This document shows, in pieces, positions 6,006 to 39,834 of a DNA stretch of 52,317 nucleotides. A program made the position numbers and the translations under genes. The first letter of the stretch is position 1. Each line of letters opens with the position of its first letter. The notes beneath the pieces are model-generated. The model ran no database searches. It was not told where the DNA came from and was given only the letters and a program-made list of their open reading frames with translations. The stretch covers positions 1-52,317 of the forward strand of contig CALRFQ010000004.1 of assembly GCA_943356675.1 (NCBI GenBank), in the 5' to 3' direction. Origin of the DNA: Candidatus Nomurabacteria bacterium (GTDB taxonomy: Bacteria; Patescibacteriota; Minisyncoccia; Phycocordibacterales; UBA9973).

Positions 6006-7739
6006 ATGGAAACAAGAAACTGCCAAAATTGCAAAAATAATTTCAACATCGAACCGGATGACTTTTCTTTCTATGAGAAGATAAAAGTTCCAGCGCCTAC
6101 ATTTTGCCCGGAGTGTAGATTAATCAGGAGGTTACAAAGCAGAAATGAGAGAGTTCTGTTTAGGGCTGAATGCGCATTGTGTAAAAATCCTACAATCACA
6201 GGTTATCATCCAGATAATCAATATGTAATTTATTGTACCAATTGCTTTGCCTCTGATAATTGGGATCCACTTTCTTATGGAGTAGATTATGATTTTTCTA
6301 AAACTTTTTTTGAACAATATAGTGACTTACAAAAGAAAGTGCCACATAAAGGACTCTATGAAATAATGTCACAAAATAGTACGTTTTCAAATTACGTGTT
6401 TAGTTCTAAAGATATATATCTTTCTTTCACTGTTGTTGATTCTGAATGGGTTTACTATACTCGTAGCGCAGATAGGTGTAAGGAAAGTATGGATTGTTAC
6501 AACATACTTGATTGTGAATCATGTTACGGGTGTATTCAGACAAGTAAAAGTTACGGATCAACTTATTTACTAGAAAGTAAGGACTGCGTAAGCTCTCATT
6601 TTCTTTTCGATTGTACAAATTGTACTGATTGTTTTATGTCATCAAACTTACGCAATAAGCAATACTATTTCCGTAATAAACAACTTTCAAGAGATGAATA
6701 TAAAAAGGCGATTGAATTAGTTAGCATGAATAGAATTTCTAATATAAATATTTTAAAAAATGAATTCAATTTGATGGTTCTAAGTTCTATTCACCGCTAC
6801 TCTTCAATAATTGGATCTGTAGATTCAACAGGGGATAATATTATTCGCTCCAAGAATACGAAAGATTCATTCCATTCAACAGAAACTGAAAATAGTCGTT
6901 TCGCAATGAGAACTGTAGGAATGAAAGATTCATATGATGTCATAGGAAGTTTGCAAAGTGAGCTTCTTTATGAAGTTCATGGTGGTGCGCGTGGCTCTAT
7001 GAATTCTCATTTCGTAAATGTTGGTACCTCCACAGTGGATTCTGAGTATACAGATTACTGTACAAACACTAAAGATGTTTTTGGATCTGTTAGTCTTAAT
7101 CAGCAATCATATTGTATTTTAAATAAAAAATATATAAAGGAAGAATATCATTCATTAATTTCTAAAATTAAAAAACATATGGTAGATATGCCGTATGTTG
7201 ACGAGAAGGGCAGAGTATATTCATTTGGAGAGTATTTCCCTCAAATCTGTGTACCATTCGCTTACAATGAATCAGCAGCGCAAGAATTTTTTCCTCTTTC
7301 TGGGGATGAAATTATTAACCAGGGCTATCTTTATCGTGAGCCTATTGTTCCAAGTTATGCACCTACTATTAGTAGGGGGACAATTCCAGATAATATAAAT
7401 AATGTAACAGATGGAATTATTAACGAAATTATTGAATGTGCTCATAATGGACATTGCGATAAACATAGATGTGTTGGAGCATTCAAAATTAACGTAGAAG
7501 AATTATCGTTTTATAAAAAATTTGGTTTACCTTTACCAGACCTTTGTCCTAATTGTCGTCACTACGATAGATTGGATTATGTGCACATGCCAGTTCTGTT
7601 TAAAAGAAAATGTAATTGTGTTTTGAATCATCAATTTCATGAAGGGGGTACATGTGAGGTAGAATTCGAAACATCATACGCTCCAAATCGCCCGGAGAAA
7701 GTCTATTGTGAGAAGTGCTATCAGCAAGAAGTGCTTTAG
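6006..7739 (+). CDS. Cysteine-rich protein of a type typical of CPR (paralog 2)
   Basis: Same architecture as 4201..5958, ending in the identical VEFETSYAPNRPEKVYCEKCYQQEVL. Confidence 0.8.
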   Translation: METRNCQNCKNNFNIEPDDFSFYEKIKVPAPTFCPECRLIRRLQSRNERVLFRAECALCKNPTITGYHPDNQYVIYCTNCFASDNWDPLSYGVDYDFSKTFFEQYSDLQKKVPHKGLYEIMSQNSTFSNYVFSSKDIYLSFTVVDSEWVYYTRSADRCKESMDCYNILDCESCYGCIQTSKSYGSTYLLESKDCVSSHFLFDCTNCTDCFMSSNLRNKQYYFRNKQLSRDEYKKAIELVSMNRISNINILKNEFNLMVLSSIHRYSSIIGSVDSTGDNIIRSKNTKDSFHSTETENSRFAMRTVGMKDSYDVIGSLQSELLYEVHGGARGSMNSHFVNVGTSTVDSEYTDYCTNTKDVFGSVSLNQQSYCILNKKYIKEEYHSLISKIKKHMVDMPYVDEKGRVYSFGEYFPQICVPFAYNESAAQEFFPLSGDEIINQGYLYREPIVPSYAPTISRGTIPDNINNVTDGIINEIIECAHNGHCDKHRCVGAFKINVEELSFYKKFGLPLPDLCPNCRHYDRLDYVHMPVLFKRKCNCVLNHQFHEGGTCEVEFETSYAPNRPEKVYCEKCYQQEVL

Positions 7740-7795: not shown

Positions 7796-8197
7796 ATGGA
7801 AAATACAAATAATCAAAAAATTAAAATATTCGTTGCGGCAATTATAGGCGCCCTTATTATCGTAATCGGTCTTGGTATGACAGTAAATAAGCCCGGAAGC
7901 ACAAAGCTCGATGGCTTCGCACAATGTATCACGGATTCTGGAGCGAAGTTCTACGGAGCTTTCTGGTGCCCTCACTGCCAAGCACAAAAGGCTCTTTTTG
8001 GAGCATCAGCAAAATTGCTTCCTTATATAGAGTGTTCAAATGCAGACCGTTCACAAAAGCAAGCTTGTATTGATGCAAAAGTAGAAAGCTACCCAACATG
8101 GGAAATGAAAGATGGCACAAGACTACCAGTCGAGAATGGTGCAGGTGTGTCTCTTGAGACATTAGCCGCAAAGACTCAGTGTGTACTCCCTAAGTAA
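7796..8197 (+). CDS. Membrane-anchored thioredoxin-like oxidoreductase (DsbA-role partner of DsbB/VKOR)
   Basis: N-terminal TM helix, FYGAFWCPHC active site, cis-Pro YPTW. Lies directly before dsbB. Confidence 0.85.
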   Translation: MENTNNQKIKIFVAAIIGALIIVIGLGMTVNKPGSTKLDGFAQCITDSGAKFYGAFWCPHCQAQKALFGASAKLLPYIECSNADRSQKQACIDAKVESYPTWEMKDGTRLPVENGAGVSLETLAAKTQCVLPK

Positions 8198-8198
8198 T

Positions 8199-8741
8199 AT
8201 GCCAGCATATTTAGAAAATTTTAATCAGTTGCTTGCGTACGGCACAATCTTGATACAGATTGCGATCTTGGTTCTTGCTGTGGCACTTATTTTTTTTCCA
8301 AAGACAAATCAAATCAGAGTTTTCTTTAAAGAATATACTTTTTCTTTTGGTTTTCTGCTTGCACTCGGGGGAGTACTGCTCTCACTATTTTATTCTGAAG
8401 TTATTGGTTTTCCACCATGTGAGCTCTGCTGGATAAACCGTATCTTTATTTACCCACAAGCAATACTTCTTGGTATGGAATTATATAAGCGTGATAAATC
8501 CATAGTGGATCACTCCATTGTGCTTGCACTTCTTAGTATCATCACATCAATCTTCCATGTATACACAGAGAATGGTGGTGAATCTGCTCTTCCTTGCTCG
8601 TCACCCACAGTGGTCACACAAGTTTCCTGCGCAACTCGCTATGTATACGAATTCGGCTACGTGACCATCCCAGTTATGGCTCTCACGATGTCTTTGTTTA
8701 TTTTACTCTTGCTTGTGAACTACAAGCATTCTACTCGCTAA
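8199..8741 (+). CDS. dsbB: Disulfide bond formation protein DsbB/BdbC family
   Basis: PPCELCWINR motif, a second Cys pair (PC…SC), GYVTIP. Start at ATG 8199, after the upstream stop. Confidence 0.85.
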   Translation: MPAYLENFNQLLAYGTILIQIAILVLAVALIFFPKTNQIRVFFKEYTFSFGFLLALGGVLLSLFYSEVIGFPPCELCWINRIFIYPQAILLGMELYKRDKSIVDHSIVLALLSIITSIFHVYTENGGESALPCSSPTVVTQVSCATRYVYEFGYVTIPVMALTMSLFILLLLVNYKHSTR

Positions 8742-11738: not shown

Positions 11739-13004
11739 ATGTCCCTTTTTGTGAAGAAAATTACAAATACTTTCAAGCAATTACTTTCAAGAAAAGGAAG
11801 GAGTTTGCTTACTATACTTGGAATCGTTATTGGTGTCGCTGGTGTGATCATAATAGTGTCGCTTGGCGCTGGTGCGCAAACTCTAGTCTTAGGTCAGATT
11901 ACAAAATTAGGCACAAATCTTATTGGAATTCTTCCTGGTAAAAGTAATGAGAAAGGCCCACCGGCCGCGGTCTTTGGTGTGCAGGTCACTACTCTCACCG
12001 CAAATGATGTAGAAGCTATAAAAGATACTTCAAAAGTTCCTCATGCTGTGGGTGTGGCATCTTTCGTAAGAGGGAATGCGACAGTAATTTCTGGGCGAGA
12101 ATCTGTCGACACTACTTTTTCTGCGACAGATGGGAGCTATCCTAGAGTGCAAGATGTGGAGATGGATCGCGGAGTATTCTTCTCTGATGAAGAGGGTAGA
12201 GCAGGGGCAAATGTAATTGTACTTGGATACGATGTTGCAGATCAGCTTTTCCCAAATGGTGACGAGCTCGGGCAGATTGTGAAAGTTCAAACTAACGGCA
12301 ACAATAGTACTGCTATTCCATTTCGAGTTATTGGAGTACAGAAAAAGTTGGGAAATGTATTTTTCCAAAATCAGGACGATCAAGTTTTCATTCCGTTCCC
12401 AATAGGTCAGAAGCAATTTCTTGGAATAAATTATATTCAATTCGTGAGAGTAAAAGCTGATAGCACAGATAATGTGAAAAGTACCATAGAAGATATCCAA
12501 AGAGTTCTGAGGGATCAGCACAGGATTAAAGATATAGAAAATGACGATTTCTCAGTGCGAGATTTGGCTGATGCAATTAAAATTCTGACTAGTATTACTG
12601 ATGGACTGCGAATGTTTCTAGGACTCATGGCGGGGATATCTCTTGTGGTAGGTGGAATAGGAATTATGAATATAATGCTTGTGACAGTGTCAGAGCGAAC
12701 TCGCGAAATAGGTCTTAGGAAAGCAATAGGCGCGACTAGCAAGCAAATCCGTGACCAATTCCTTTTTGAAGCTGTGATCCTCACTTCTCTCGGAGGTGTG
12801 TTTGGTATTATTGTCGGCAGTTTGATTTCTTATCTTATTGCAGTAGGTGCTAGGTATGCTGGGTATGATTGGTCGTTCGTGATTTCACCAACTGCTATAA
12901 TCCTTGCTGTGGGTGTGTCTGTGCTGACTGGAATTACATTTGGACTTTATCCAGCTATAAAAGCAGCGAAGCTTAATCCTATAGACGCACTTAGATACGA
13001 ATAA
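11739..13004 (+). CDS. ABC transporter permease (MacB/FtsX family)
   Basis: RSLLTILGIVIGV, GGIGIMNIMLVTVSERTREIGLRKAIGA, PIDALRYE. Confidence 0.95.
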   Translation: MSLFVKKITNTFKQLLSRKGRSLLTILGIVIGVAGVIIIVSLGAGAQTLVLGQITKLGTNLIGILPGKSNEKGPPAAVFGVQVTTLTANDVEAIKDTSKVPHAVGVASFVRGNATVISGRESVDTTFSATDGSYPRVQDVEMDRGVFFSDEEGRAGANVIVLGYDVADQLFPNGDELGQIVKVQTNGNNSTAIPFRVIGVQKKLGNVFFQNQDDQVFIPFPIGQKQFLGINYIQFVRVKADSTDNVKSTIEDIQRVLRDQHRIKDIENDDFSVRDLADAIKILTSITDGLRMFLGLMAGISLVVGGIGIMNIMLVTVSERTREIGLRKAIGATSKQIRDQFLFEAVILTSLGGVFGIIVGSLISYLIAVGARYAGYDWSFVISPTAIILAVGVSVLTGITFGLYPAIKAAKLNPIDALRYE

Positions 13005-20053: not shown

Positions 20054-20335
20054 TTATTTCTTATACATCTTATTTAAAACTTTCGCAAAGCCACCATTCT
20101 TGTCTTGAAGCTCTTTAGAACCTCTGGTAATTGTGCCGATACCAATCTTAAGATCTTCAGCAATAGCCCACTGTTTCTCACCTTTATAAAGCCTATGCAT
20201 TATCTCCCAGCGCTTCGGTAGGGCATTGTATTCGCGGGCAGTAAGTATATCTTCAAGGAATGAGTTAAGTAGTGTAGTGTCCTTCGCAGCCACCATAAAT
20301 GCTTTTATGAGTTCCTCTTTGTAAGTATTTTTCAT
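20054..20335 (-). CDS. TrpR/YerC family transcriptional repressor
   Basis: LTAREYNALPKRWEI…Q..IAEDLKIGIGTITRGSKEL. The 'TITRGS' recognition helix is identical to that of TrpR. 1 nt from folA, so likely co-transcribed. Confidence 0.85.
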   Translation of the reverse strand: MKNTYKEELIKAFMVAAKDTTLLNSFLEDILTAREYNALPKRWEIMHRLYKGEKQWAIAEDLKIGIGTITRGSKELQDKNGGFAKVLNKMYKK

Positions 20336-20374
20336 GTACCCAAATTATACTCCAAAAACCCAGAATTTAAAATA

Positions 20375-28337: not shown

Positions 28338-28743
28338 AAAATTAAAAGAAGATGCGAAGTTGCCTACATATGCAAACCCGGGGGATGTGGGTATGGATAT
28401 GTATGCGATGGAGACAGTGACTATTCCTCCTATGGGGCACCACAGATTTTGGCATGGATTTGCACTGGAGTTTGAGAATGGCTATGCGGCTATAGTGAAG
28501 GATAAATCGAGCATTTCTAAAGCGGGGCTTCACACTATGGGAGGAGTTTTCGACGCGGGATTTAGAGGAGAATATAATACGCACGTAGTAAACCTTGGAA
28601 GCGAAGCGTATACTGTGGAAGCTGGCGACAAGGTGGCACAGCTCATCATTTACCCTGTGGCTATTGCGGAACTTGAGGAATCTGATACATTAAGTGAGTC
28701 AGTGCGTGGGGAAGGAAGCTTCGGCAGTACAGGCAAAAAGTAA
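28321..28743 (+). CDS. dut: dUTP diphosphatase (trimeric)
   Basis: GMDM, KSS, GGVFDAGFRGE, AQL, RGEGSFGSTG. Confidence 0.95.
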   Translation: MKIKIRKLKEDAKLPTYANPGDVGMDMYAMETVTIPPMGHHRFWHGFALEFENGYAAIVKDKSSISKAGLHTMGGVFDAGFRGEYNTHVVNLGSEAYTVEAGDKVAQLIIYPVAIAELEESDTLSESVRGEGSFGSTGKK

Positions 28744-28744
28744 T

Positions 28745-30469
28745 ATGGAAACACAGATAAAGAATTTAATTAAAGATGCACTTAAGAACCTCGGCATAGA
28801 AGCGAAGGCTATAGTGCTCGAGCACCCAGCGGATATAAAGATGGGGGATTATTCTACGAACGTTGCCATGGCTTATGCAAAAGCTCTCAAGATGAACCCA
28901 AAGGAATTGGCAGAGAAAATCGTGGGAGGAATAAATAAAATATCAGAAATTGAAAAAATCGAAGTTGCTGGTCCTGGCTTTATAAACTTCTATCTATCTC
29001 GCGAATTTTTTGCAAATTCTATAAAAGAAATTTTAAATAATAAAGAAAATTGGGGTAAAAATAATATTTCAAAAGGAAAGAAGATTATGGTGGAGTATAC
29101 AGACCCAAATCCTTTCAAACCATTCCATATTGGTCACCTTATGACGAATGCCATAGGAGAGTCACTTGCTCGTATTACAGAATTCTCTGGTGCGGATACT
29201 GTGCGTGCAAACTATCAAGGTGATGTAGGTATGCATGTGGCGAAGTCTATGTACGGGATTTTCAATTCTAAAGAATATAAAGAAAGTGGAATTCCAAAAT
29301 TAGGAAGTTCTGAGGCAGCTGTGTGGATAGGTGAATGCTATTCGAAAGGTAGTGATGCATATGACAATGATGCTGACGCTAAAAAGGAAATAGAAAGTTT
29401 TAATAAAAAAGTTTATGACAAGAGCGATGAAAAGGTAAATGAAGTTTATGATTGGGGTAGAAGTGTTACCCTAGAAGCCTTTGAAGAAATTTACAAAACT
29501 TTAGGAACAAAGTTCAAGCATTACTTTTTTGAAAGTGTAATGGCACCAATTGGCGAGAAGATAGTTCGAGAAAATATGGGAAATGTGTTTGAAGAATCCG
29601 AAGGCGCCATAGTATTTCATGCTGAGAATTATGACCCCAAGCTTCATACTCGTGTATTTATTACGTCCCTCGGAATTCCACTTTATGAGACGAAAGAAAT
29701 TGGACTTACCGTTACAAAATTTGAAAAAGAACAAAACCTCGACCTTTCTATAGTAGTTACTGCTATCGAGCAAGGTGAATATATGAAAGTAGTTGCGAAA
29801 GCTATGTCACTGCTTCATCCAGAGCTCGAAATGAAGATGAAGCATATTACTCACGGAATGATGCGTCTTACAACAGGGAAGATGAGTTCAAGAAAAGGGA
29901 ATGTAATTACTGGAGAGTCACTACTTCGTGATTCTATTTCCACAATTTTAGAAAAAGTACAAGAGAGGGATATGAGCGAGGATGAGAAGAAAGAGGTGGC
30001 AGAAATTGTGGGAGTATCTGCGCTCAAATATTCAATCTTAAAATCTTCGATGGGATCAGACATTATTTATGACTTCGATAAGTCTATATCTTTCGAAGGG
30101 GATTCAGGTCCGTACCTTCAGTACACAGTTGTGCGTGCAAGTGCGATACTCCGAAAGGCAGAGGAAGCAGGCCTATCACCTGTAACCTTTGACCTATTAC
30201 CTGTTCCAAACGAGATTACGAGTTTGGAACACATGCTCTATCAATTCCCTGAAGTCGTCGCTCGCGCATATGAATCACTTGAACCTCACCATATAGCCAC
30301 ATACCTTACTGAGCTTGCGAGCGCCTTTAACTCATTTTATGGCAATACTCAAATAATAAACAAAGAAGACCCAAATTCAGGTTACCGCGTAGCCCTCGTG
30401 GAAGCTTTCTATAATACTATGAAAAACGGCTTATACCTTTTAGGTATCAAAACTCCTGAAAAGATGTAG
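28745..30469 (+). CDS. argS: Arginine--tRNA ligase
   Basis: GDYSTN, AGPGFINF, PNPFKPFHIGH, KMSSRKG, GPYLQY, C-terminal PEKM. Start at METQ 28745. Confidence 0.97.
   Translation: METQIKNLIKDALKNLGIEAKAIVLEHPADIKMGDYSTNVAMAYAKALKMNPKELAEKIVGGINKISEIEKIEVAGPGFINFYLSREFFANSIKEILNNKENWGKNNISKGKKIMVEYTDPNPFKPFHIGHLMTNAIGESLARITEFSGADTVRANYQGDVGMHVAKSMYGIFNSKEYKESGIPKLGSSEAAVWIGECYSKGSDAYDNDADAKKEIESFNKKVYDKSDEKVNEVYDWGRSVTLEAFEEIYKTLGTKFKHYFFESVMAPIGEKIVRENMGNVFEESEGAIVFHAENYDPKLHTRVFITSLGIPLYETKEIGLTVTKFEKEQNLDLSIVVTAIEQGEYMKVVAKAMSLLHPELEMKMKHITHGMMRLTTGKMSSRKGNVITGESLLRDSISTILEKVQERDMSEDEKKEVAEIVGVSALKYSILKSSMGSDIIYDFDKSISFEGDSGPYLQYTVVRASAILRKAEEAGLSPVTFDLLPVPNEITSLEHMLYQFPEVVARAYESLEPHHIATYLTELASAFNSFYGNTQIINKEDPNSGYRVALVEAFYNTMKNGLYLLGIKTPEKM
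30173..30207 (+). repeat. Five degenerate 7-bp units (CTnnnAC) inside argS
   Basis: ctatcac ctgtaac ctttgac ctattac ctgttcc, encoding LSPVTFDLLPVP. Confidence 0.65.
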
Positions 30470-30482
30470 GATACTACTTTTT

Positions 30483-30608
30483 TTATGCTATAATATTAAA
30501 ACTTAATAGTTGACTTTTTATTATGATGAAAAAATATTTATCAATTTTTGTTTTATCTTTTTTGTTCCTAAGCACTAATAGTGCCTTGGCTGTTTATAAT
30601 GCGTCAGA
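30483..30608 (+). repeat. Near-identical duplicate of 32431..32554 (promoter, 5' UTR and signal peptide)
   Basis: Direct comparison of the two stretches. Confidence 0.9.
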
Positions 30609-32376
30609 CGTGATAGGGCAACGTGATTCTTCAAATAATGCTGTTTTTACAACAAGTGCTGCAAATAACGGTAGTACGGTAAGTGCACGAGGGCTTTCTA
30701 GTGAAGTTCGTGCTGTAAAATTAGACACAGTACATCACCGATTGTTCGTTGTGGATAGAAATAACAATCGTGTACTTGTGTACAACCTTGATTCCAGTAA
30801 TAATCTTCTTGATACAGATGCTGATAATGTATTTGGACAAGTTGATTTAACTGCTACTGCATCATCTTGTACTACCGCGACAGGTTTAAATTCACCTACT
30901 GGCGCAGAATATGATTCTGCAAATAATCGTCTATTTGTTGCTATGACCAATAGTGGAAGTGCTTATAGTCGTATTGTTGTTTATGATTTATCTTCTGGTA
31001 TTACAGATGGGATGGCTGCAGTAAATGTACTTGGTCAAGCAAATCTTACAACATGTAATTCTAGAGTAAGTACGGCGAGTAACGTATATTTCCCATTTGA
31101 TATGAAGTACGACACTACTACAGGGTTATTGTATGTAGCAGATTTGTCTCGTAACCGTGCACTTGTTTTTGATGCTCGTCCAGCAAGTTCTGCTCCTATG
31201 ACTGTGTGTGGTGCTACTACAACAGGTATAGTAGACAATATGGATGCATCATGTGTTCTTGGTCAACCAAACTTTTCTACAGTTAGTTCAGGTAATACAA
31301 TAGCAAAAATGAATGGTACATTTGGTTTTGAAATCGATACGACTAATCATCGTTTATATGTATCTGAATATGCTTCCAATCGTATTAAGGTTTATGACAC
31401 ATCAGCATTAGCAACAAGCATGGATGCTTCATATGTTTTAGGTCAGACTGATTTTTCTGGAGCTACATCAGGTGTAACACAATCGAAATTTAATTCTCCG
31501 ACTGCGATGGCGTTTGATGCCACTACTGGACTACTTTATGTAACTGATGAAAACAACCACCGTGTAATGGTTTTTGATGTATCAGGAACTATATCTAACG
31601 GAATGTCTGCATCGTATATTCTTGGTGCAGATGATTTTACAACAATAAATAGTGGACCTACAGCATCTTTAATGGGAGTAGTTTTTGGTGTTGCTATTGA
31701 TACAAACAACAAGAATTTATTTGTGGTGGATAAAACTAATGACCGTGTTCTTCTTTTTAAACCAACTATTGCAATTCAATCAAGCACATTGAATTCAGGT
31801 AAAGTAACTAGAACATATTCAGAAAGTATATCGATAAGTGATAATCAACAGACTCCTTCTCTTGAGCTAGTTAGTGGAACGTTACCAACTGGAATTTCAA
31901 TTTCAGGTACATCATTAGTGGGTAGAGCTACAGAATTTGGAACTTACAATTTTGTATTAAAGGCAGTTGATACTGGCATACACGGAATTTTCTCTTCAGA
32001 TGACACTAATTTCAGCATAGACATTCAATACCTACCTAGTACTTCTGGATCTACTGCTTCAAGCTTTGGTTCAAAAGTAAACAATAATACTCAAAGTTCA
32101 ATTCCTGTAAGTACTGAAAATGATACATCTATTAAGGTGTGTGCCGCATTTGGTAAGCCAGTTAAGTTTGGTAGAAATAATGATAAAGATGAGGTAAAGC
32201 TATGGCAACAATTCTTAAACAATAGTGAAGGTGAGAAATTAGCTGTTGATGGAGGATACGGATTAAAGAGCAAGCTAGCTGTTGCTAGATTCCAAAAGAA
32301 GCACAACCTAGGATCAGATGGAATTATAGGTCCAAAAACAGAAGAAGAGGGTAATAAAACAAAGACTTGTTATTAA
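30523..32376 (+). CDS. Secreted NHL-repeat (beta-propeller) protein with Ig-like domain and C-terminal peptidoglycan-binding domain
   Basis: Signal peptide (…SALA), repeated RLFVxDxxNxRVLV and VLGQxDF units, Ig-like SGTLPTGISI…GTYNFVLKA, and VKLWQQFLN…DGGYG..S..AV..FQKK..L..DGIIGP. Confidence 0.85.
   Translation: MMKKYLSIFVLSFLFLSTNSALAVYNASDVIGQRDSSNNAVFTTSAANNGSTVSARGLSSEVRAVKLDTVHHRLFVVDRNNNRVLVYNLDSSNNLLDTDADNVFGQVDLTATASSCTTATGLNSPTGAEYDSANNRLFVAMTNSGSAYSRIVVYDLSSGITDGMAAVNVLGQANLTTCNSRVSTASNVYFPFDMKYDTTTGLLYVADLSRNRALVFDARPASSAPMTVCGATTTGIVDNMDASCVLGQPNFSTVSSGNTIAKMNGTFGFEIDTTNHRLYVSEYASNRIKVYDTSALATSMDASYVLGQTDFSGATSGVTQSKFNSPTAMAFDATTGLLYVTDENNHRVMVFDVSGTISNGMSASYILGADDFTTINSGPTASLMGVVFGVAIDTNNKNLFVVDKTNDRVLLFKPTIAIQSSTLNSGKVTRTYSESISISDNQQTPSLELVSGTLPTGISISGTSLVGRATEFGTYNFVLKAVDTGIHGIFSSDDTNFSIDIQYLPSTSGSTASSFGSKVNNNTQSSIPVSTENDTSIKVCAAFGKPVKFGRNNDKDEVKLWQQFLNNSEGEKLAVDGGYGLKSKLAVARFQKKHNLGSDGIIGPKTEEEGNKTKTCY
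31762..32054 (+). repeat. 293-bp high-identity duplicate of 33708..34000 (Ig-like domain)
   Basis: Same length and colinear, encoding PTIAIQSSTLNSGKVTR…QYLPSTSGS in both. Confidence 0.9.
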
Positions 32377-32383
32377 TTATGCT

Positions 32384-32415
32384 CATAAAAACACCACATA
32401 TGTGGTGTTTTTATG
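32384..32415. terminator. Perfect 32-bp palindrome, probable terminator
   Basis: CATAAAAACACCACAT|ATGTGGTGTTTTTATG. Confidence 0.75.
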
Positions 32416-32471
32416 TAATATCTTTTAAACTTATGATATAATATTAAAACTTAATAGTTAACTTTTATATT

Positions 32472-34292
32472 ATGAAAAAATATTTATCAATTTTTGTTTT
32501 ATCTTTTTTGTTCCTAAGCACTAATAGTGCCTTGGCTGTTTATAATGCGTCAGATGTTATAGGGCAGCGTGACGGGTCTAATAATGCGTCTTATACTACA
32601 AACACCGCAGCTGTAACAGCAAGTGGTTTGTCTGCTTATATACGAGGTATTGCCCTAGACGAAGTACATCATCGTCTGTTTATATCTGACGGATCAAACA
32701 ACCGTGTTTTGGTTTACAATCTTGACTCAGCAAATAAACTTATAGACACTACCGCTGACAATGTTCTAGGTCAACCAGATATGACATCAAACACGTCTTT
32801 ATGTACCAGTATGTCTGGTTTAGCTGGCCCCAGAGGTTTGTCTTATGACCCATTAAACAATCGCCTTTTTGTTACGATGGATGGTATGACTGATTACAGA
32901 ACAGGGCATGGTGTTTTTGTATACGACGTAGCTTCAATTACAGACGGTGAAGCGGCTGTGAATGTGCTAGGCAGGTCAACTATGGCATCTTGTGCAAACA
33001 CAAGTGTATACAATGCTGTAAATATTATGTTTCCGTACGGTGTTGCCTTTGATGTAGAAACAGGCCTATTATATGTTTCTGACCTATCTCATAGCCGTGT
33101 TGTCGCTTTTGATGCACGACCAGCTGGTAGTGCATCTACTTCATTTTGTGGCGCCAGTGCCACCACAGGTATTGCAGACTTTATGTCAGCTTCATGTGTG
33201 ATAGGTAAAGCAAACTTTACTTCGTCTACTTCAGCTCCTTTATCTGATACTGTTATGGGTAACAATTCAGGTGTAACTATAGATTATGTACACCACAGGC
33301 TTTTTGTTAGTCAGTATGCTTCAAATAGAATTACAGTATATGACATATCAAGTTTGGCAAACGGAATGGCTGCATCATATGTTATCGGGCAGGCAGACTT
33401 TTCTACATCTGCAGCTGGATTAACCGCATCTACTGTAAACAATGTCAGCTCTACAAGTTATGACTCTGTAAATAATTACCTTTATGCATCAGATGAATTA
33501 AATAGACGCGTTCTAGTATATAAATTAGACAATATAGCAAACGGCATGTCTGCTTCATACATACTTGGCCAAGACGATTTTACTACAAACACAGCAAGTC
33601 TGACACAGCATGGTTTCGGAGACAAGCCAGGTGAATCTTATTATGATACAACAAATCAACGCCTGTATGTTTTAGAACAAGCTGGTGCACGCGCATTAGT
33701 TTTCCAGCCAACAATCGCAATCCAATCAAGCACATTAAATTCAGGTAAAGTGACTAGGTCATATTCAGAAAGTATAACGATAAGTGATAATCAACAGACT
33801 CCTTCCCTTGAACTAGTTAGTGGAACGTTACCAAGTGGAATTTCAATTTCAGGTACGTCACTAGTGGGTAGAGCTATAGAATTTGGAACTTACAATTTTG
33901 TACTAAAAGCAATAGATACTGGTATTCATGGTATTTTCTCCTCAGATAATACTAATTTTAGTATTGATATTCAGTATCTACCTAGTACTTCTGGTTCTAC
34001 AATTATGGGTTCAATACCCATAGAGATTAATAATAATGATTCATCAAGTAAAGTTTGTGTAGCATTTAGTAAAACTATAAAAGCTGGTCAAAAGAATGAT
34101 AAAGATGAAGTTAAGTTATGGCAGCAATTTTTAAACAATAGTGAAAATGAGAACTTAGTGATCGACGGGGGGTATGGTGCGAAGAGTAAAGCTGCAATTG
34201 TTAAATTTCAAAAGAAAAATAATTTGGGTTCTGATGGTATCATAGGACCGGTTACTCGTCTTCCAGCAAATATGATCCTTGGATGTAAGTAA
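32472..34292 (+). CDS. Secreted NHL-repeat/Ig/peptidoglycan-binding protein (paralog)
   Basis: Same architecture as 30523..32376. Confidence 0.85.
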   Translation: MKKYLSIFVLSFLFLSTNSALAVYNASDVIGQRDGSNNASYTTNTAAVTASGLSAYIRGIALDEVHHRLFISDGSNNRVLVYNLDSANKLIDTTADNVLGQPDMTSNTSLCTSMSGLAGPRGLSYDPLNNRLFVTMDGMTDYRTGHGVFVYDVASITDGEAAVNVLGRSTMASCANTSVYNAVNIMFPYGVAFDVETGLLYVSDLSHSRVVAFDARPAGSASTSFCGASATTGIADFMSASCVIGKANFTSSTSAPLSDTVMGNNSGVTIDYVHHRLFVSQYASNRITVYDISSLANGMAASYVIGQADFSTSAAGLTASTVNNVSSTSYDSVNNYLYASDELNRRVLVYKLDNIANGMSASYILGQDDFTTNTASLTQHGFGDKPGESYYDTTNQRLYVLEQAGARALVFQPTIAIQSSTLNSGKVTRSYSESITISDNQQTPSLELVSGTLPSGISISGTSLVGRAIEFGTYNFVLKAIDTGIHGIFSSDNTNFSIDIQYLPSTSGSTIMGSIPIEINNNDSSSKVCVAFSKTIKAGQKNDKDEVKLWQQFLNNSENENLVIDGGYGAKSKAAIVKFQKKNNLGSDGIIGPVTRLPANMILGCK

Positions 34293-34351
34293 ATCTATTT
34301 CTCTCAAAAAAGTGCTTTTTTTACACAGTATTTACTGTATAATATAAACAC

Positions 34352-36304
34352 ATGAAACGGAAGTTAATATTTAAGGTAATATCTGTATTTATAATAATTT
34401 CAGTATTTTTTATTGCTTATAAAAACTACTCACACGCTGCATTTAGTACAGTAGACTGTACAAACGGCGCACACCTCACAACACTAGGGGGTATATCTCA
34501 GGCTGAATGTCAGGCATTAGAAGATTTATATACAGATACAGCCGGTGCATCGTGGACCACTAAGACAAACTGGGATACTGTTTCTGATGTTGGTACATGG
34601 TACGGGGTAACTCGTACTGGTACACATGTTACAACTATTCTATTAAATAGTAATAATCTGGTTGGGACTTTACCCTCATCTATCTCTAGTTTAACAGGGT
34701 TAGTAAGTTTCAATGTGCAAAATAATACACTTTCTGGTCCTATACCATCTTTTACTTCAAATACTGCTCTGATTAATCTTATTATGAGCTATAATCAATT
34801 CACTGGATCAATTCCATCATTAAGTACAAATACATTATTAGAATATGTTTATTTTAATAATAATCAACTCACTGGGTCTATTCCATCTTTATCAACCAAT
34901 ACCGTATTGGTTGATTTATATATTAATAATAATCAACTCACTGGGTCTATTCCATCACTAAGTACAAATACATTATTGAGATATGTTGATTTAGGATACA
35001 ATCAACTCACTGGGTCTATTCCATCCCTAACAACCAATACTACATTAGTTTATTTTTATGTTAATAATAATCAACTCACTGGGTCTATTCCATCATTAAC
35101 ACCAAATACATTATTGAAATATGTTGAGTTAAATAACAATCAGCTTACTGGATCTATTCCATCATTAACAGCAAATACAGTCCTAGAAGAATTTTATGTT
35201 AATAAAAATAATCTAAGTGGAGATATTCCAGATCTAACATCTTTTGCTTCACTTTTAGGTTCATTTGCTGAAAATGCTTTATATACCAGTTCTAGTACCA
35301 TAGATACAGCTGCAGATACTAAATTTTCTGAAAACTGGTCTGCTACGCAAACCATAGCTCCTACTGGAGTTGCTGCCACAGTATCAGGAACTGATATTAT
35401 TATTTCATGGAATCCTATAGAATATGCATCCATTGGGTCTTATAAAGTTTACTCAAGTACAGTTTCAGGTGGGCCGTACAGTACATTACAAGGCACCGTA
35501 GCTAGGACTGGTAGTCAAACACTTACTATTTCTGGTCTGAGTACTAATACGAATTATTATTTTATAGTTCAGTCGTATACACCAGACAACGGAACACAAC
35601 AAAATGTAGTAACTGCAGATTCAGCAGAAGTTTTAGGAAGAATTGCGAGGCGCTCAAGTTCTAGTGGAAGTTCTGGAAGAGTAATTCATACATATCCAAC
35701 AAGTGCGGATGCTTCTAAAATGAATATATCTTTAACCAATATTCCAACTTTAGTAAATAATATTGCCAAATTAAAGTGGAGCCCTATTGTTAATGCGGTC
35801 AGCATGGTGTTTTCTTTGGACTCAAATTTTATAAATGCAATAAGTATGCCATTCAAACAGGAATCAAATTTTATTTTACCAAGCGTTATTGGGACATATA
35901 ATATATACGCAAAACTCACTTCTTCTACTGGTGATTCATTGTATTTTAATCCAATCTTAGTAAAAATTGATAACATTTCAAAAATTAAGCTAGTGGAAAA
36001 GCCAATCGTTCCAAAAGTGATTAATAAAAAACCAACAGTAACTCCAATTAAAACTATAAAGACATGTGGACCGCTTAATAAATACTTAGAACCAGGAAGA
36101 GTAAATAATGATAAAAATGAAGTTAAGCTTTGGCAGAATTTCTTGAATAAATACGAGGGGGAGGAACTTGATGTAAATGGTAATTATGATTTACTAACTC
36201 AAGAAGCTGTCTTTCGGTATCAAGCTGTAAATAATATGAAAGTTGACGGAGTAATAGGATCCGCTACACGCCTACCAGCAAACAGAATCCTTGGCTGTAA
36301 GTAA
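34352..36304 (+). CDS. Secreted LRR + fibronectin type III + peptidoglycan-binding protein
   Basis: Signal peptide, LRR cap (ECQALEDLY…W…WYGVT), NNQLTGSIPSL repeats, FN3 (ISWN…YKVY…LSTNTNYYF.V), and a PG-binding tail. Confidence 0.85.
   Translation: MKRKLIFKVISVFIIISVFFIAYKNYSHAAFSTVDCTNGAHLTTLGGISQAECQALEDLYTDTAGASWTTKTNWDTVSDVGTWYGVTRTGTHVTTILLNSNNLVGTLPSSISSLTGLVSFNVQNNTLSGPIPSFTSNTALINLIMSYNQFTGSIPSLSTNTLLEYVYFNNNQLTGSIPSLSTNTVLVDLYINNNQLTGSIPSLSTNTLLRYVDLGYNQLTGSIPSLTTNTTLVYFYVNNNQLTGSIPSLTPNTLLKYVELNNNQLTGSIPSLTANTVLEEFYVNKNNLSGDIPDLTSFASLLGSFAENALYTSSSTIDTAADTKFSENWSATQTIAPTGVAATVSGTDIIISWNPIEYASIGSYKVYSSTVSGGPYSTLQGTVARTGSQTLTISGLSTNTNYYFIVQSYTPDNGTQQNVVTADSAEVLGRIARRSSSSGSSGRVIHTYPTSADASKMNISLTNIPTLVNNIAKLKWSPIVNAVSMVFSLDSNFINAISMPFKQESNFILPSVIGTYNIYAKLTSSTGDSLYFNPILVKIDNISKIKLVEKPIVPKVINKKPTVTPIKTIKTCGPLNKYLEPGRVNNDKNEVKLWQNFLNKYEGEELDVNGNYDLLTQEAVFRYQAVNNMKVDGVIGSATRLPANRILGCK
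34793..35206 (+). repeat. Six 69-bp (23-aa) LRR tandem repeats
   Basis: Units start at 34793, 34862, 34931, 35000, 35069 and 35138. The core AATCAACTCACTGGGTCTATTCCATC is identical in the four middle copies. Confidence 0.9.
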
Positions 36305-36351
36305 ATCTATTTCTTTCAAAAAAGCTTATTTTTTGGTAGTATTTACTGTAT

Positions 36352-39300
36352 ATGGATGAAACAGTTAAGAAATCAAATAATGCAGAAAGGGAAGAGAAGA
36401 TACTGAAATTCTGGCAGGAGAATGATACTTTTCAAAAAAGTTTAAAAAAGGATGCTCCAAAAGGGAACTATGTGTTTTATGATGGGCCACCTTTCGCTAC
36501 AGGGCTCCCTCACTATGGGCATATCTTGGGCTCTACTGCTAAAGACGCCATAGGCCGCTACAAGACCATGCAGGGCTTTACTGTGCCACGTAAGTGGGGC
36601 TGGGATTGCCATGGGCTTCCTATTGAGAACATTGTAGAGAAAGATCTTGGGATTTCTGGAAAGAAGGGCATTGAAGAATACGGGCTAGAGAAATTCTCAG
36701 AGCATGCTCGAAGTAAGGTCCTCACATATGTGGGTGATTGGAAGAGGACAGTGGATCGTATGGGGCGCTGGGTGGACTTCGATAATTCATACAAGACTAT
36801 GGACAACACTTTCATCGAAAGTGTGTGGTGGGCTCTCGGTGAACTAAACAAAAAAGAATTACTTTACGAAGGAGTGCGCGTGCTTGCATATTGCCCACGT
36901 TGTGAGACTCCAATTGCCAATTCTGAAATAGCGATGGACAACAGTTATAAGGATATAACTGATATTTCTGTTTATGTGAAGTTTGAATTAGTGAGTGAAC
37001 CAAAAACATACCTACTTGCATGGACGACAACTCCTTGGACTCTACCGGGGAACACTGCTGTAGCAGTGAATAAAGATTTCACCTATGTATATGTAAAAAA
37101 TAATAAAGAAGATGTGAATGAGACTTTAATTCTTGAAAAGGGTAGATTTGAAATACTGAAAGATAAATTTACAAATCCTGAAATATTAAAAGAGGTTTCC
37201 GGTAGTGACCTTATCGGACTCTCATACTTGCCAGTATTTAGTTACTACAAGGATACAGATATGCCAAATAAAGAAAATATTTGGAAAGTTTGGCATGCTG
37301 ATTTTATAACATCGGATTCAGGTACTGGTATCGCTCACGAAGCTCCAGCCTTCGGAGAGGATGATATGAATTTAGCAAAAGCAAACAATATTCCTTTTAT
37401 TCGCCATGTGGAGCCAAACGGAACTTTCGTAAGCATGGTTACGGATTTCGCTGGAGAGAAAGCGAAACCAAAAGAGGATCACCAGTCCGGCGACGTGCTC
37501 ATCATAAAGTACCTTGCGAAAGAGGGCGCACTTTTTGCAAAAGAAAAAATCATCCACTCATATCCTCACTGCTACCGCTGTGAGACACCACTACTATACT
37601 ATGCACTTCCTTCTTGGTTTGTGAACATCCAAAAGGTGAAGGCGAAGGCTCTCGAAGAGGCTAAATCTATGAATTGGATCCCTTCGCACCTTAAAGATGG
37701 ACGCTTCAACAATATACTCGAGAATGCACCAGACTGGACCATCTCTCGCAATCGCTTCTGGGCGAGCCCACTTCCTATTTGGAAAAACAAAGATGGGAAA
37801 ATACTTTTTGTAAATTCACTTGAAGATTTGAAAAATAAAACTAAAAAAAGTGGGAATAAATATTTCGGAATGCGACATGGTTATGGTCAGCATATGGAGA
37901 AGGGGGTAGTGTCATCACTCGACCATGATTCATATCACCTTACAGAAGAAGGCAGAAACGAGGTAGTAAAAAGCGCTACAGATTTGAAGAATAAAGGTAT
38001 TACAAAAATCTTTACTTCACCACTAATTCGCACGAAAGAAACTGCAAAGATCGCTGCAGGAATTTTAGGTATTAATCCAAGTGAGATAGTAGTAGATGAC
38101 AGGATTCGTGAGTATGAATTCGGAGAATTTAATGGCAAGCCTTGGCAAGAGTATATCGATTATCGTGATCAACATATCGCCACTTATGATGAGCCACTAG
38201 GAGGGTCAAGCTTACTTGAAACGAAAAAGCGTTTCGCTGATTTTATTTATGAAATTGAAAATAATTTCCAGAATGAAAATATTTTAATTGTGACTCACGG
38301 TGTTTTCTTCGAAACAATACCAGCGATAATTGAAGGAGCAAATAATGAAAGATCACTTGAAATAGTTTTTGAGGTCTTTAACAATGCACGAATACAACCA
38401 GCAGAAGTAAGAGAATATGATTTTACTCCAATCCCTCACAATGCAAAATACGAGCTTGATATGCATCGCCCGTATATTGATAGGATTACACTAGTGGATG
38501 AAAATGTAGATGAATACAAGAGAATTCCTGAGGTGATAGACTGCTGGTTTGAATCTGGCTCAATGCCATTTGCTCAGGATCACTATCCGTTTGAGCGCCC
38601 AAACTGGCAGAAAGAGAATTTCCCAGCTGGCTTTGTGGCAGAATATATTGCTCAGACTCGCACATGGTTCTACTACTCACATATTATTTCTACTATTTTA
38701 TTCGGGCAAGCTCCATTTCAGAATATTATTTCTACAGGTACGGTACTCGCAGAAGATGGAGAGAAGATGAGTAAGTCCAAGAATAATTTCACAGACCCTT
38801 GGATAATGTTTAATAAAGTGGGCGTGGATCCTATACGCTTCTATCTTATGAGTTCACAGGTAATGCGTGGGGAGGATTTGAACTTCTCAGATAAGGCAGT
38901 GCAAGATGTGGCAAGTAAAATCGTAGGACGCTTGGATAATGTGGTAGCATTTTATGAACTATATCGTGATAAAAATCTAGAACCTAGAACCTCTAACCTA
39001 GAACCTAGTTCAAATGCTTTAGATATCTGGATACTTGCAAGATTAAGTGAGACTATAAATGAAGTAACTCTCAATATGGATGCATATGATTTAGCGCTTG
39101 CTTCTAGACCTTTTGAAAGCTTCATAGAAGACCTTTCCACTTGGTATCTTCGCCGTTCACGCGACCGAATAAAGGATGGCGACAAAGAAGCAAAATCCAC
39201 AATGTATTTCGTGCTCAAAAATTTGGTGAAGGTTATGGCTCCATTTACACCTTTCATAGCAGAAGATGTATGGCAGAGGCTCAAGACTGAAGGGGATGCT

Positions 39301-39834
39301 GAAAGTGTGCATTTAGCTAAATGGCCTGAAGGGCAGGTTCTAGTTTCTAGTGATAAGGTTCTAGTAGAAATGCAACAAGTTAGAGATGTAGTTACACTTG
39401 GACTCGAAGCTCGTCAAAAAATGGGTATTAAGGTTCGTCAACCTCTAAATAGCTTAAAGGTTGTAGGTAGTAGGTTACAGGATGAGTATATAGAAATTTT
39501 GAAAGATGAGTTGAATATTAAAAATATTGAGATAGTAGAAGGGGAGGCACTAAATGTGGAGCTGGATACAAATATCACATTAGAATTAAAACAAGAAGGG
39601 GACTACCGTGAATTACTTCGTGCTGTGCAGGACCTAAGAAAGACAGAAGGACTTAACCCAAGTGATGTTGTGACTCTCGTTATTTATACAGATGAAAATG
39701 GGAAAAATATTGTGGAAATGTTTAAGAATGATTTTATGAAAACTGCCGGACTTAAAGAAATAAAAATGGAAGAGTTCGATGGGCTTGAAGTGAAAGTAGG
39801 GGAACTAGTATTTAAAATAAAAATTCTCAAATAA
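36352..39834 (+). CDS. ileS: Isoleucine--tRNA ligase (type 2) with an inserted histidine-phosphatase domain
   Basis: DGPPFATGLPHYGH, GWDCHGLP, WTTTPWTLP, DWTISRNRFW, KMSKS. The insert carries RHG, SPLIRTKETA and VTHG. Confidence 0.95.
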   Translation: MDETVKKSNNAEREEKILKFWQENDTFQKSLKKDAPKGNYVFYDGPPFATGLPHYGHILGSTAKDAIGRYKTMQGFTVPRKWGWDCHGLPIENIVEKDLGISGKKGIEEYGLEKFSEHARSKVLTYVGDWKRTVDRMGRWVDFDNSYKTMDNTFIESVWWALGELNKKELLYEGVRVLAYCPRCETPIANSEIAMDNSYKDITDISVYVKFELVSEPKTYLLAWTTTPWTLPGNTAVAVNKDFTYVYVKNNKEDVNETLILEKGRFEILKDKFTNPEILKEVSGSDLIGLSYLPVFSYYKDTDMPNKENIWKVWHADFITSDSGTGIAHEAPAFGEDDMNLAKANNIPFIRHVEPNGTFVSMVTDFAGEKAKPKEDHQSGDVLIIKYLAKEGALFAKEKIIHSYPHCYRCETPLLYYALPSWFVNIQKVKAKALEEAKSMNWIPSHLKDGRFNNILENAPDWTISRNRFWASPLPIWKNKDGKILFVNSLEDLKNKTKKSGNKYFGMRHGYGQHMEKGVVSSLDHDSYHLTEEGRNEVVKSATDLKNKGITKIFTSPLIRTKETAKIAAGILGINPSEIVVDDRIREYEFGEFNGKPWQEYIDYRDQHIATYDEPLGGSSLLETKKRFADFIYEIENNFQNENILIVTHGVFFETIPAIIEGANNERSLEIVFEVFNNARIQPAEVREYDFTPIPHNAKYELDMHRPYIDRITLVDENVDEYKRIPEVIDCWFESGSMPFAQDHYPFERPNWQKENFPAGFVAEYIAQTRTWFYYSHIISTILFGQAPFQNIISTGTVLAEDGEKMSKSKNNFTDPWIMFNKVGVDPIRFYLMSSQVMRGEDLNFSDKAVQDVASKIVGRLDNVVAFYELYRDKNLEPRTSNLEPSSNALDIWILARLSETINEVTLNMDAYDLALASRPFESFIEDLSTWYLRRSRDRIKDGDKEAKSTMYFVLKNLVKVMAPFTPFIAEDVWQRLKTEGDAESVHLAKWPEGQVLVSSDKVLVEMQQVRDVVTLGLEARQKMGIKVRQPLNSLKVVGSRLQDEYIEILKDELNIKNIEIVEGEALNVELDTNITLELKQEGDYRELLRAVQDLRKTEGLNPSDVVTLVIYTDENGKNIVEMFKNDFMKTAGLKEIKMEEFDGLEVKVGELVFKIKILK
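38977..39011 (+). repeat. Five 7-bp units (CTAGAAC consensus) inside ileS
   Basis: ctagaac ctagaac ctctaac ctagaac ctagttc, encoding LEPRTSNLEPSS. Confidence 0.8.
39337..39364 (-). repeat. Four 7-bp units in inverted orientation (GTTCTAG) inside ileS
   Basis: gttctag tttctag tgataag gttctag. Confidence 0.65.
39460..39480 (-). repeat. Three 7-bp units (GTnnnAG) inside ileS
   Basis: gttgtag gtagtag gttacag, whose reverse complement is CTnnnAC. Confidence 0.55.

Follow-up and report, generated by a model that had tools for sequence, protein, structure and literature searches.

How have three neighbouring genes, lodged between two aminoacyl-tRNA synthetase genes of a small bacterial genome, come to resemble one another almost letter for letter in some stretches and to differ widely in others, and what might their products do at the cell surface? 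The genes lie on a 52,317-nt stretch of Candidatus Nomurabacteria bacterium (assembly GCA_943356675.1, contig CALRFQ010000004.1; the whole stretch is called the window below), which makes up contig 4 of its genome (719 kb, 98.5% complete), and the reads come from lake-water metagenomes. They are three open reading frames (ORFs) of the same, plus strand in the ORF list, namely gene 1 (g1; 30523–32376, 617 amino acids), gene 2 (g2; 32472–34292, 606 amino acids) and gene 3 (g3; 34352–36304, 650 amino acids), placed between argS (28694–30469) and ileS (36352–39834), and within their own genome (G000) they match only one another. A first-pass annotation of the letters alone had reported three peptidoglycan (PG)-binding proteins at this place, and the ORFs are as it described them. 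Our reading is that they probably form a tandem cluster of secreted, modular surface proteins that has become mosaic through recombination and whose heads serve ligand binding.

Recombination between g1 and g2 is evident from how unevenly the two genes have diverged. Their 5′ block (30483–30608 versus 32431–32554), which begins about 40 nt before the start codon, is identical in 120 of 126 columns, and the portion upstream of the coding sequence (30483–30522 and its copy 32431–32471; repeat family D10, 94%) agrees in 38 of 41. A second block, which encodes an immunoglobulin-like (Ig) domain (31760–32052 versus 33706–33998), is common to both genes and identical at 260 of 293 ungapped positions; at 88.7% it is better called similar than near-identical. 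The propellers encoded between these blocks are diverged as reported, their DNA being 40–73% identical in 60-nt windows and the g2 propeller protein 44–57% identical to that of g1. By the Nei–Gojobori method (NG86), the proportion of differing synonymous sites (pS) is 0.18 over the first 34 codons, which make up the signal-peptide block, and 0.375 over the Ig block (0.16 at its centre), whereas the propeller reaches 0.75 and the PG-binding domain 0.89; the nonsynonymous proportion (pN) is 0 and 0.027 in the two blocks and 0.15 in the PG-binding domain. Among codons that encode the same residue in both genes, the third position differs in 27 of 126 within the two blocks and in 135 of 254 elsewhere (Fisher p = 2e-9), a disparity that is also found when the Ig block (23/92) is set against the propeller (105/195), and the longest perfect run of g1/g2 identity is 83 nt compared with a maximum of 37 in 2000 column shuffles. 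Since synonymous differences are few in the blocks and many elsewhere, the mosaic that the annotation had proposed is the work of recombination and not of protein constraint only. Its description of the 5′ block as a shared promoter fares less well. The near-identity holds, and TGNTATAAT-like words are present at 30486–30494 and 32434–32442, reading TGCTATAAT (extended −10-like) upstream of g1 and TGATATAAT upstream of g2, but a promoter consensus scan found no enrichment (36 sites versus 26.1 ± 5.6 in shuffles), and the upstream block is best regarded as a putative promoter.

At its 3′ end, gene 2 changes partner. Up to about 34240, g1 and g2 are the closer pair; beyond that point g2 tracks g3 to the stop codon and on across the next 49 nt of spacer, such that its last ~13 codons are of the gene-3 type. 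Between the g2 3′ block (34250–34341, consisting of tail codons, stop and intergenic DNA) and the g3 3′ block (36262–36352, including the 47-nt spacer before ileS), 76 of 93 columns are identical, versus 43 of 93 for the equivalent g1 stretch, which bears out the common C-terminus and downstream DNA noted earlier; the narrower pair 34263–34312 and 36275–36324 agrees at 45 of 50 positions. The g2 block ends in the 15-mer AGTATTTACTGTATA (34327–34341), and a second copy (36338–36352) ends on the first base of the ileS ATG (36352). The exact 15-mer occurs in the 719-kb genome at 34327 and 36338 only; it is a duplication relic rather than a common regulatory word. Which of the junctions is derived? 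Another genome of the genus (G052) and the homologues P0122 and P0123 also have the g3-type tail (TRLPANxxLGC), each time with a g3-type PG-binding domain, and P0003 pairs the g1-type tail with a PG-binding domain of the g1 type, so both tails are native variants. The combination of a g1-type PG-binding body with a g3-type tail is found in g2 only, which marks the junction inside g2 as derived. Gene 2 is therefore a recombinant, as had been suggested, with a 5′ block, Ig domain and PG-binding body of the g1 type and a tail and 3′ flank of the g3 type. Its propeller lacks a close relative among 5.8 billion proteins, the nearest being those of g1 (52%), P0004 (51%), and P0002 and P0007 (50% each).

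What kinds of proteins have been assembled in this way? Domains were assigned with Pfam at curated cut-offs (NHL, PF01436, 20 bits; PG_binding_1, PF01471, 23 bits; LRR_4, PF12799, 27 bits; He_PIG, 24 bits) and with AlphaFold2 models, and the signal peptides were assigned by eye from a KK n-region and a hydrophobic core followed by ALA|V or SHA|A. The g1 protein comprises a predicted signal peptide (residues 1–23, 30523–30591), a six-bladed NHL propeller (residues 25–415, 30595–31767; 61.4 bits), an Ig-like beta-sandwich (residues 417–502, 31771–32028), a disordered linker (residues 503–539) and a three-helix PG_binding_1 domain (residues 540–617, 32140–32373; 34.3 bits) bracketed by C540 and C616. 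The g2 protein follows the same order, with a predicted signal peptide (residues 1–22), an NHL propeller (residues about 24–411; 30.8 bits), an Ig-like domain counterpart to that of g1 (residues about 416–501, about 33717–33974) and a PG_binding_1 domain (residues 529–606; 36.6 bits) between C529 and C605. In g3, a predicted signal peptide (residues 1–29) and a cysteine pair (C36/C53) modelled within a helical N-terminal cap precede an LRR solenoid (residues 86–332; LRR_4 65.8 bits, LRR_1, PF00560, 50.3 bits), an fn3 domain (residues 336–432; 30.0 bits), an unnamed beta-sandwich that we call X (residues 456–541), a long Lys/Pro-rich linker that is disordered in the model, and a PG_binding_1 domain (residues 572–650; 36.7 bits) between C572 and C649. 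All three proteins thus carry the related PG-binding domain between two cysteines that had been reported, each above the PG_binding_1 cut-off.

The models give these assignments a structural footing. The propeller fold was modelled for g1. From 52 aligned sequences, g1 is predicted with a mean pLDDT (predicted local distance difference test) of 88.1, showing six four-stranded blades at residues 29–412 (mostly above 90), a low-confidence N-terminal helix in the signal-peptide region, disorder at residues 508–539, and PG-binding helices at 555–568, 581–593 and 604–613 (89–96). By Foldseek, its propeller matches solved NHL domains with template modelling (TM) scores of 0.78–0.86 (TRIM71, 0.86; TRIM2, TRIM3 and Thin), and the NHL domain of Brat is also among the best matches. 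The g3 model (81.3 overall) contains an N-terminal helix, one strand per 23 residues over the LRR region 86–311 (95–99), a confident fn3 domain (338–430, about 90) and X domain (459–539, 86–92), and a PG-binding domain of low confidence, where the alignment is shallow. The LRR periodicity is also visible in the DNA, where 34655–35306 has a 69-nt period (repeat family D1) with seven registered copies that are 61–79% identical; short-read contigs break within this repeat (34858–35090). Pfam returned no family at E ≤ 1 for the isolated g1 Ig block or the g3 X domain. He_PIG (PF05345) matches at the position of the Ig block in two homologues, P0008 (31.6 bits) and a protein of genome G077 (40.1 bits), and the X domain has a counterpart in the C-terminus of P0006, with 33% identity (E 2e-16).

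Taken as a design, these modules suggest how the proteins might work. A Sec-type signal peptide would export each of them; the head, an NHL propeller in g1 and g2 and an LRR solenoid with fn3 in g3, would bind a ligand, perhaps on another cell or particle; and a beta-sandwich spacer with a disordered linker would separate it from the C-terminal anchor. Judging from what is known of these families, NHL and LRR domains are expected to bind ligands and PG_binding_1 to bind murein, and PG_binding_1 would most likely tie the protein non-covalently to the peptidoglycan of the cell itself, with the head pointing outward. A disulfide closing the Cys-bracketed domain is plausible given a DsbB homologue in the window, a DsbB-family ORF at 8181–8738 (40.8 bits). 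Sortase anchoring was considered for the 'RLPAN' motif and rejected, as only 11 residues separate it from the C-terminus and it is not followed by a hydrophobic segment. At the level of DNA, homologous recombination has homogenised g1 and g2 over the upstream/signal-peptide block and the Ig block, and gene 2 carries a tail and 3′ flank of the gene-3 type.

Are these modules exchanged beyond this one array? A search with the g1 protein yielded 1714 homologues at E ≤ 1e-5 among 7999 scored candidates, under source names that include Paceibacterota, Uhrbacteria, Yanofskybacteria and Dojkabacteria, and many carry PF01436, PF05345 and PF01471, so the predicted NHL/Ig/PG_binding_1 architecture is common in Patescibacteria; metagenome contigs scanned with g1 gave five further loci at 23–47% identity, none of them a close relative. 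The nearest full-length homologues of g1 are P0002 (70%), P0003 (67%) and P0004 (66%), g2 being more distant (61%). Segment by segment, in a protein-level alignment of ten sequences (A1, one of them a 341-residue fragment), the nearest neighbours change. The signal peptides of g1 and g2 are identical (100%) and 95–96% identical to that of P0004, and those of the other six full-length proteins reach 32–55%. In the propeller, g1 is 79–90% identical to P0002, P0003 is 80–90% identical to P0006, P0008 and P0009 over the first two thirds, and P0004 switches partner within the domain, its first part being 81% identical to g1 and the remainder 87–89% identical to P0022. The Ig domains fall into one type shared by g1, g2 and P0003 (92–96%) and another shared by P0002 and P0004 (97%), with 46–49% across types, and the type of PG-binding domain goes with that of the Ig domain. 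Other relatives carry further combinations. P0006–P0009 have a g3-like X sandwich and a Cys-bracketed Lys-rich loop in place of the PG-binding domain; some relatives end in a hydrophobic stretch followed by basic residues; the proteins of G052, P0122 and P0123 (1020–1056 amino acids) have, ahead of a g3-like body, an NHL propeller that is canonical but different, together with a Big_13-like domain; and L060, P0126 and P0127 keep the g3 head and end in a different Cys-bracketed domain. Signal peptides and anchors are therefore swapped and not the heads alone, which contradicts the proposal of constant export and anchor modules with variable heads: signal peptide, Ig domain and anchor reassort among relatives as the propeller does. 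Modules thus reassort within the array, by gene conversion, and probably between lineages as well. The Lys-rich loop of P0006–P0009, 17–20 residues closed by two cysteines (C...KKNSKGK...C-K/R), may be an alternative surface anchor.

Does the pattern call for recombination, or even for a real array? An old tandem duplication followed by purifying selection alone on the signal peptide and the Ig domain could leave two well-preserved blocks, and these are indeed the parts most conserved as protein, with the pN values given above. Yet synonymous sites are 2–4 times less diverged in the blocks than elsewhere, the similarity of the blocks continues into non-coding DNA on both sides, and nearest neighbours differ from segment to segment among relatives. 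The PG-binding domain provides an internal control, conserved as protein and nevertheless saturated at silent sites, so protein constraint alone is not the source of the low pS in the blocks, and we consider this explanation highly improbable. An assembly artefact, in which the alleles of two co-existing strains were joined end to end, is just as hard to credit, although the genome is metagenome-assembled and De Bruijn contigs break at every shared block. Words of the stretch are present in ten runs from three studies, five of which may be its source, and the contigs of four (X1, X6, X7 and X9) were compared. X1 is itself a possible source sample and serves as a check on the assembler rather than as an independent sample. 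Its second-assembler contigs cover everything, are interrupted nowhere but in the shared blocks and the LRR repeats, and bridge argS–g1, g1–g2, g2–g3 and g3–ileS (29600–30555, 30579–32413, 32386–32501, 32525–34235, 34217–34883 and 35066–37400). With each unique piece taken once, only the linear order of the window fits these bridges; the long pieces also have similar contig depths (10.3–12.7, a depth that is not a copy number). Two apparent contig joints, 30563>34845 and 31777>37266, have 21-nt sides with 80% likeness and were dismissed as matches to repeats or to foreign DNA.

If the recombination is real, is it programmed, and do the heads bind or catalyse? Cassette switching, in which expressed genes are rewritten from their neighbours at high frequency within the life of a population, would account for paralogs in tandem that share recombination-prone blocks at either end and midway along, and for modules that reassort among relatives. 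We regard it as very unlikely, because the array consists of three complete ORFs with predicted signal peptides and is devoid of silent promoterless cassettes, a Pfam scan of 49 flanking ORFs in the 52-kb window gave no match to an integrase, transposase, invertase or reverse transcriptase, the contig pieces compared from other samples do not differ from the window, and the shared blocks are already 5–12% diverged, such that conversion was not very recent. A diversity-generating retroelement was rejected in particular, given the same lack of a reverse transcriptase and the character of the 33 Ig-block differences, which are mostly transitions in both directions without adenine bias. Less remote, and still unlikely in our estimation, is that the products are secreted wall-tethered enzymes or nutrient scavengers, for instance lactonase- or esterase-like propellers acting on polymers of the cell's own or a foreign envelope, with the mosaic serving substrate range. 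In Pfam, Arylesterase (35.4 bits), SGL and MRJP do match parts of the propellers, some homologues bear names such as 'lactonase family protein' or 'sugar lactone lactonase YvrE', Kuroda et al. term related Paceibacteria proteins 'extracellular enzymes', and PG_binding_1 is typical of wall hydrolases (PMC10936435). However, the Arylesterase and SGL matches span one or two blades and look like cross-matches between repeats, the structures that match best are NHL domains of the binding type (TRIM71, TRIM2, Brat), the LRR head of g3 is a binding fold with no match to a catalytic family in Pfam, and none of the three proteins contains a hydrolase domain.

The reading as recombining surface proteins with ligand-binding heads must itself be weighed against several observations. 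NHL propellers also occur in enzymes, and there are the weak partial Arylesterase and SGL matches; PG_binding_1 could bind the wall of another cell instead of the cell's own. As to the host attachment by an episymbiont that the annotation had thought plausible, freshwater Paceibacteria are reported as both host-associated and unattached cells (PMC9166423). Saturation of pS makes dN/dS in the propeller uninterpretable, and the probable exchange between lineages (P0002–P0004) is traced in protein identities. Heads of the g1/g2 type are found in 3 of 92 other genomes of the genus and the g3 body in 2 of 92, as sporadic accessory genes; the G077 homologue sits at another locus, between a replicative-helicase-like gene and L21/cysS; and the Cys bracket is clade-specific, with 7 of 44 rows counted as PG-bearing, a count that also admitted rows without a PG-binding domain, such as P0006–P0009. 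The lake samples bear on the same question. X6 and X7 come from another study (one sample of which is also a possible source) and X9 from a third, and all yield scattered pieces only, at depths of about 2.4–4.6. Pieces within the three genes, which for X9 are 31834–31996, 33232–33551 and 36304–36498, show no difference from the window, and at a depth of 2–5 no alternative arrangement or allele was seen in X6, X7 or X9. Variation between strains was thus not seen in these contigs, the pieces being identical to the letter. The same strain recurs across lake samples, and its sameness there is weak evidence for an invariant locus. One X7 contig over argS, with 17 differences, comes from a relative.

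Is the interval between argS and ileS in some way dedicated to such proteins, as the label of a diversifying adhesin locus had implied? Searches for ArgS and for IleS covered 60 other genomes of the genus, and in 43 of them the two genes lie on one contig, adjacent and co-oriented. The gap between them does vary, from about 60 bp to 12.6 kb (below 1.1 kb in 29 genomes, 1.1–2 kb in five and at least 2 kb in nine), which agrees with that label in part. Its content does not. Among 20 intervals whose ORFs were listed, eight of the nine gaps of at least 2 kb are occupied by an unrelated Cys-rich protein of 556–589 amino acids in one to five tandem copies; it has CxxC pairs at either end, and its Pfam matches, to treble-clef, LIM and zinc-ribbon families, are all weak. 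The largest number of copies, five, is found in G022. A related surface protein occupies the gap in G052 only, directly behind argS. The smaller gaps hold assorted small genes, and in G011, where argS and ileS are on separate contigs, an unrelated 250-residue PG_binding_1 protein adjoins argS. Arrays of tandem paralogs have thus landed repeatedly between argS and ileS, and the gap is not a dedicated adhesin locus. The Cys-rich family is represented in L018 (560–9161), L020, L021, L022, L023, L024, L025 and L026, and G000 itself has two copies about 23 kb upstream (4201–5955 and 6006–7736) that are 35–39% identical to a G022 copy. The G017 gap contains a 264-residue ORF (L027, 531–1325) with an N-terminal FTLIELLVV-type segment, which we take to resemble that of a type IV pilin. 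The flanking genes may not be fixed either. ArgS identities in the genus fall into classes of about 61–78% or about 39–50%, and those of IleS into about 71–85% or about 43–53%; the two do not co-vary (G052, ArgS 50% and IleS 85%; G043, ArgS 74% and IleS 47%), which suggests that argS and ileS have also been replaced or recombined.

How does the cluster compare with systems already known? Its closest counterparts are Patescibacteria proteins filed as 'NHL repeat-containing protein' or 'peptidoglycan-binding protein', which have the same NHL, He_PIG and PG_binding_1 domains in the same order and whose members are uncharacterised; the PG-binding and Ig-like extracellular proteins that Kuroda et al. 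describe in Paceibacteria (PMC10936435) belong among them. In comparison with these, g1 and g2 are short, single-propeller proteins of 606–617 amino acids versus mostly 750–1080, and the present genes differ in being arranged in tandem, in their rarer Cys-bracketed anchor and in a demonstrable recombination mosaic. The nearest well-studied analogue in design and evolution, though not a relative, is the Listeria internalin cluster (inlGC2DE / inlGHE). Internalins are anchored by LPXTG or GW modules; the anchor here is PG_binding_1 and two of the three heads are NHL propellers, g3 has no Internalin_N or LRR_adjacent match in Pfam at E ≤ 0.01, and the bacterium, unlike Listeria, is no pathogen. 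Within the internalin cluster, inlH is described as a recombinant of inlC2 and inlD (PMC3977354). Gram-positive fibrillar adhesin-like proteins are likewise described as an N-terminal binding domain, a stalk and a C-terminal anchor (Monzon et al., 2021, PMC8286594), an order common to g1–g3; compared with the fibrillar adhesins of that account, the one (g1, g2) or two (g3) stalk-like domains here would make short stubs and not fibres. Structurally, the succession of a beta-propeller and an Ig-like domain also recalls the archaeal S-layer protein 1L0Q, a tandem of a YVTN propeller and PKD (Foldseek E 1.4e-15), although the TM scores are low (0.33/0.49) and 1L0Q is without a PG-binding anchor. 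The 1L0Q propeller is of the seven-bladed YVTN type.

Why should such a cluster matter? Partner recognition by ultrasmall Patescibacteria is largely obscure outside Saccharibacteria, in which type IV pili and several predicted adhesins are reported to be essential (PMC11665869, PMC10633639) and natural competence has been described (PMC10633639). In archaea-attached Paceibacteria, extracellular proteins with PG-binding and Ig-like domains are given as among the most highly expressed, and a role in attachment has been proposed for them (Kuroda et al., 2024, PMC10936435). The locus reveals no new mechanism, as monoderm bacteria are well known to have surface-protein genes that lie in tandem and recombine. 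It offers a compact, well-resolved case of module exchange in the commonest predicted surface-protein design of the group, and it defines the pieces, namely two propeller heads, one LRR head and a Cys-bracketed PG-binding anchor; we found no earlier description of such mosaicism in Patescibacteria in the open-access library that was searched. A more speculative idea, which we advance tentatively and would sooner doubt than assert, is that signal peptide, propeller (even single blades), Ig stalk and anchor circulate as independent cassettes in freshwater Paceibacteria-type lineages, being exchanged by DNA uptake between lineages and by gene conversion between tandem paralogs, much like phage tail-fibre genes. 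If true, the combinatorial shuffling of cassettes would determine the partner cells or particles to which a lineage can attach. The same idea would allow g2 and g3 to be a fission product of a G052-type NHL–LRR fusion, split by the insertion of a copied anchor, a 3′ flank and a new signal peptide.

Several smaller features complete the picture of the window. An intrinsic-terminator-like hairpin follows gene 1 on the plus strand (32384–32415; a 14-pair stem, then a T run), and genes 2 and 3 are without a hairpin as strong as this one. Rfam matched nothing over 30000–37000. Downstream of gene 3, ileS begins 47 nt after the gene (36305–36352), and in G052 it is preceded by a leader of about 290 nt that is richer in G+C. 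The long G052 leader has a T-box-like look, which was set aside when Rfam at its gathering score lent it no support, finding no family before ileS here or in G052. The rest of the window is housekeeping in character, encoding functions in nucleotide metabolism, aminoacyl-tRNA synthetases, an ABC exporter, RecO and a two-component system. Two further ORFs of G000 carry PG_binding_1 and are large and secreted-looking, both with their matches on the minus strand: C10, of 650 amino acids (match at 20244–20342), and C17, of 995 amino acids (match at 11966–12070). In one of the two, PG_binding_1 is C-terminal and scores 18.5 bits, below the cut-off; in the other it is N-terminal and is followed by a long Thr/Ser-rich beta region.

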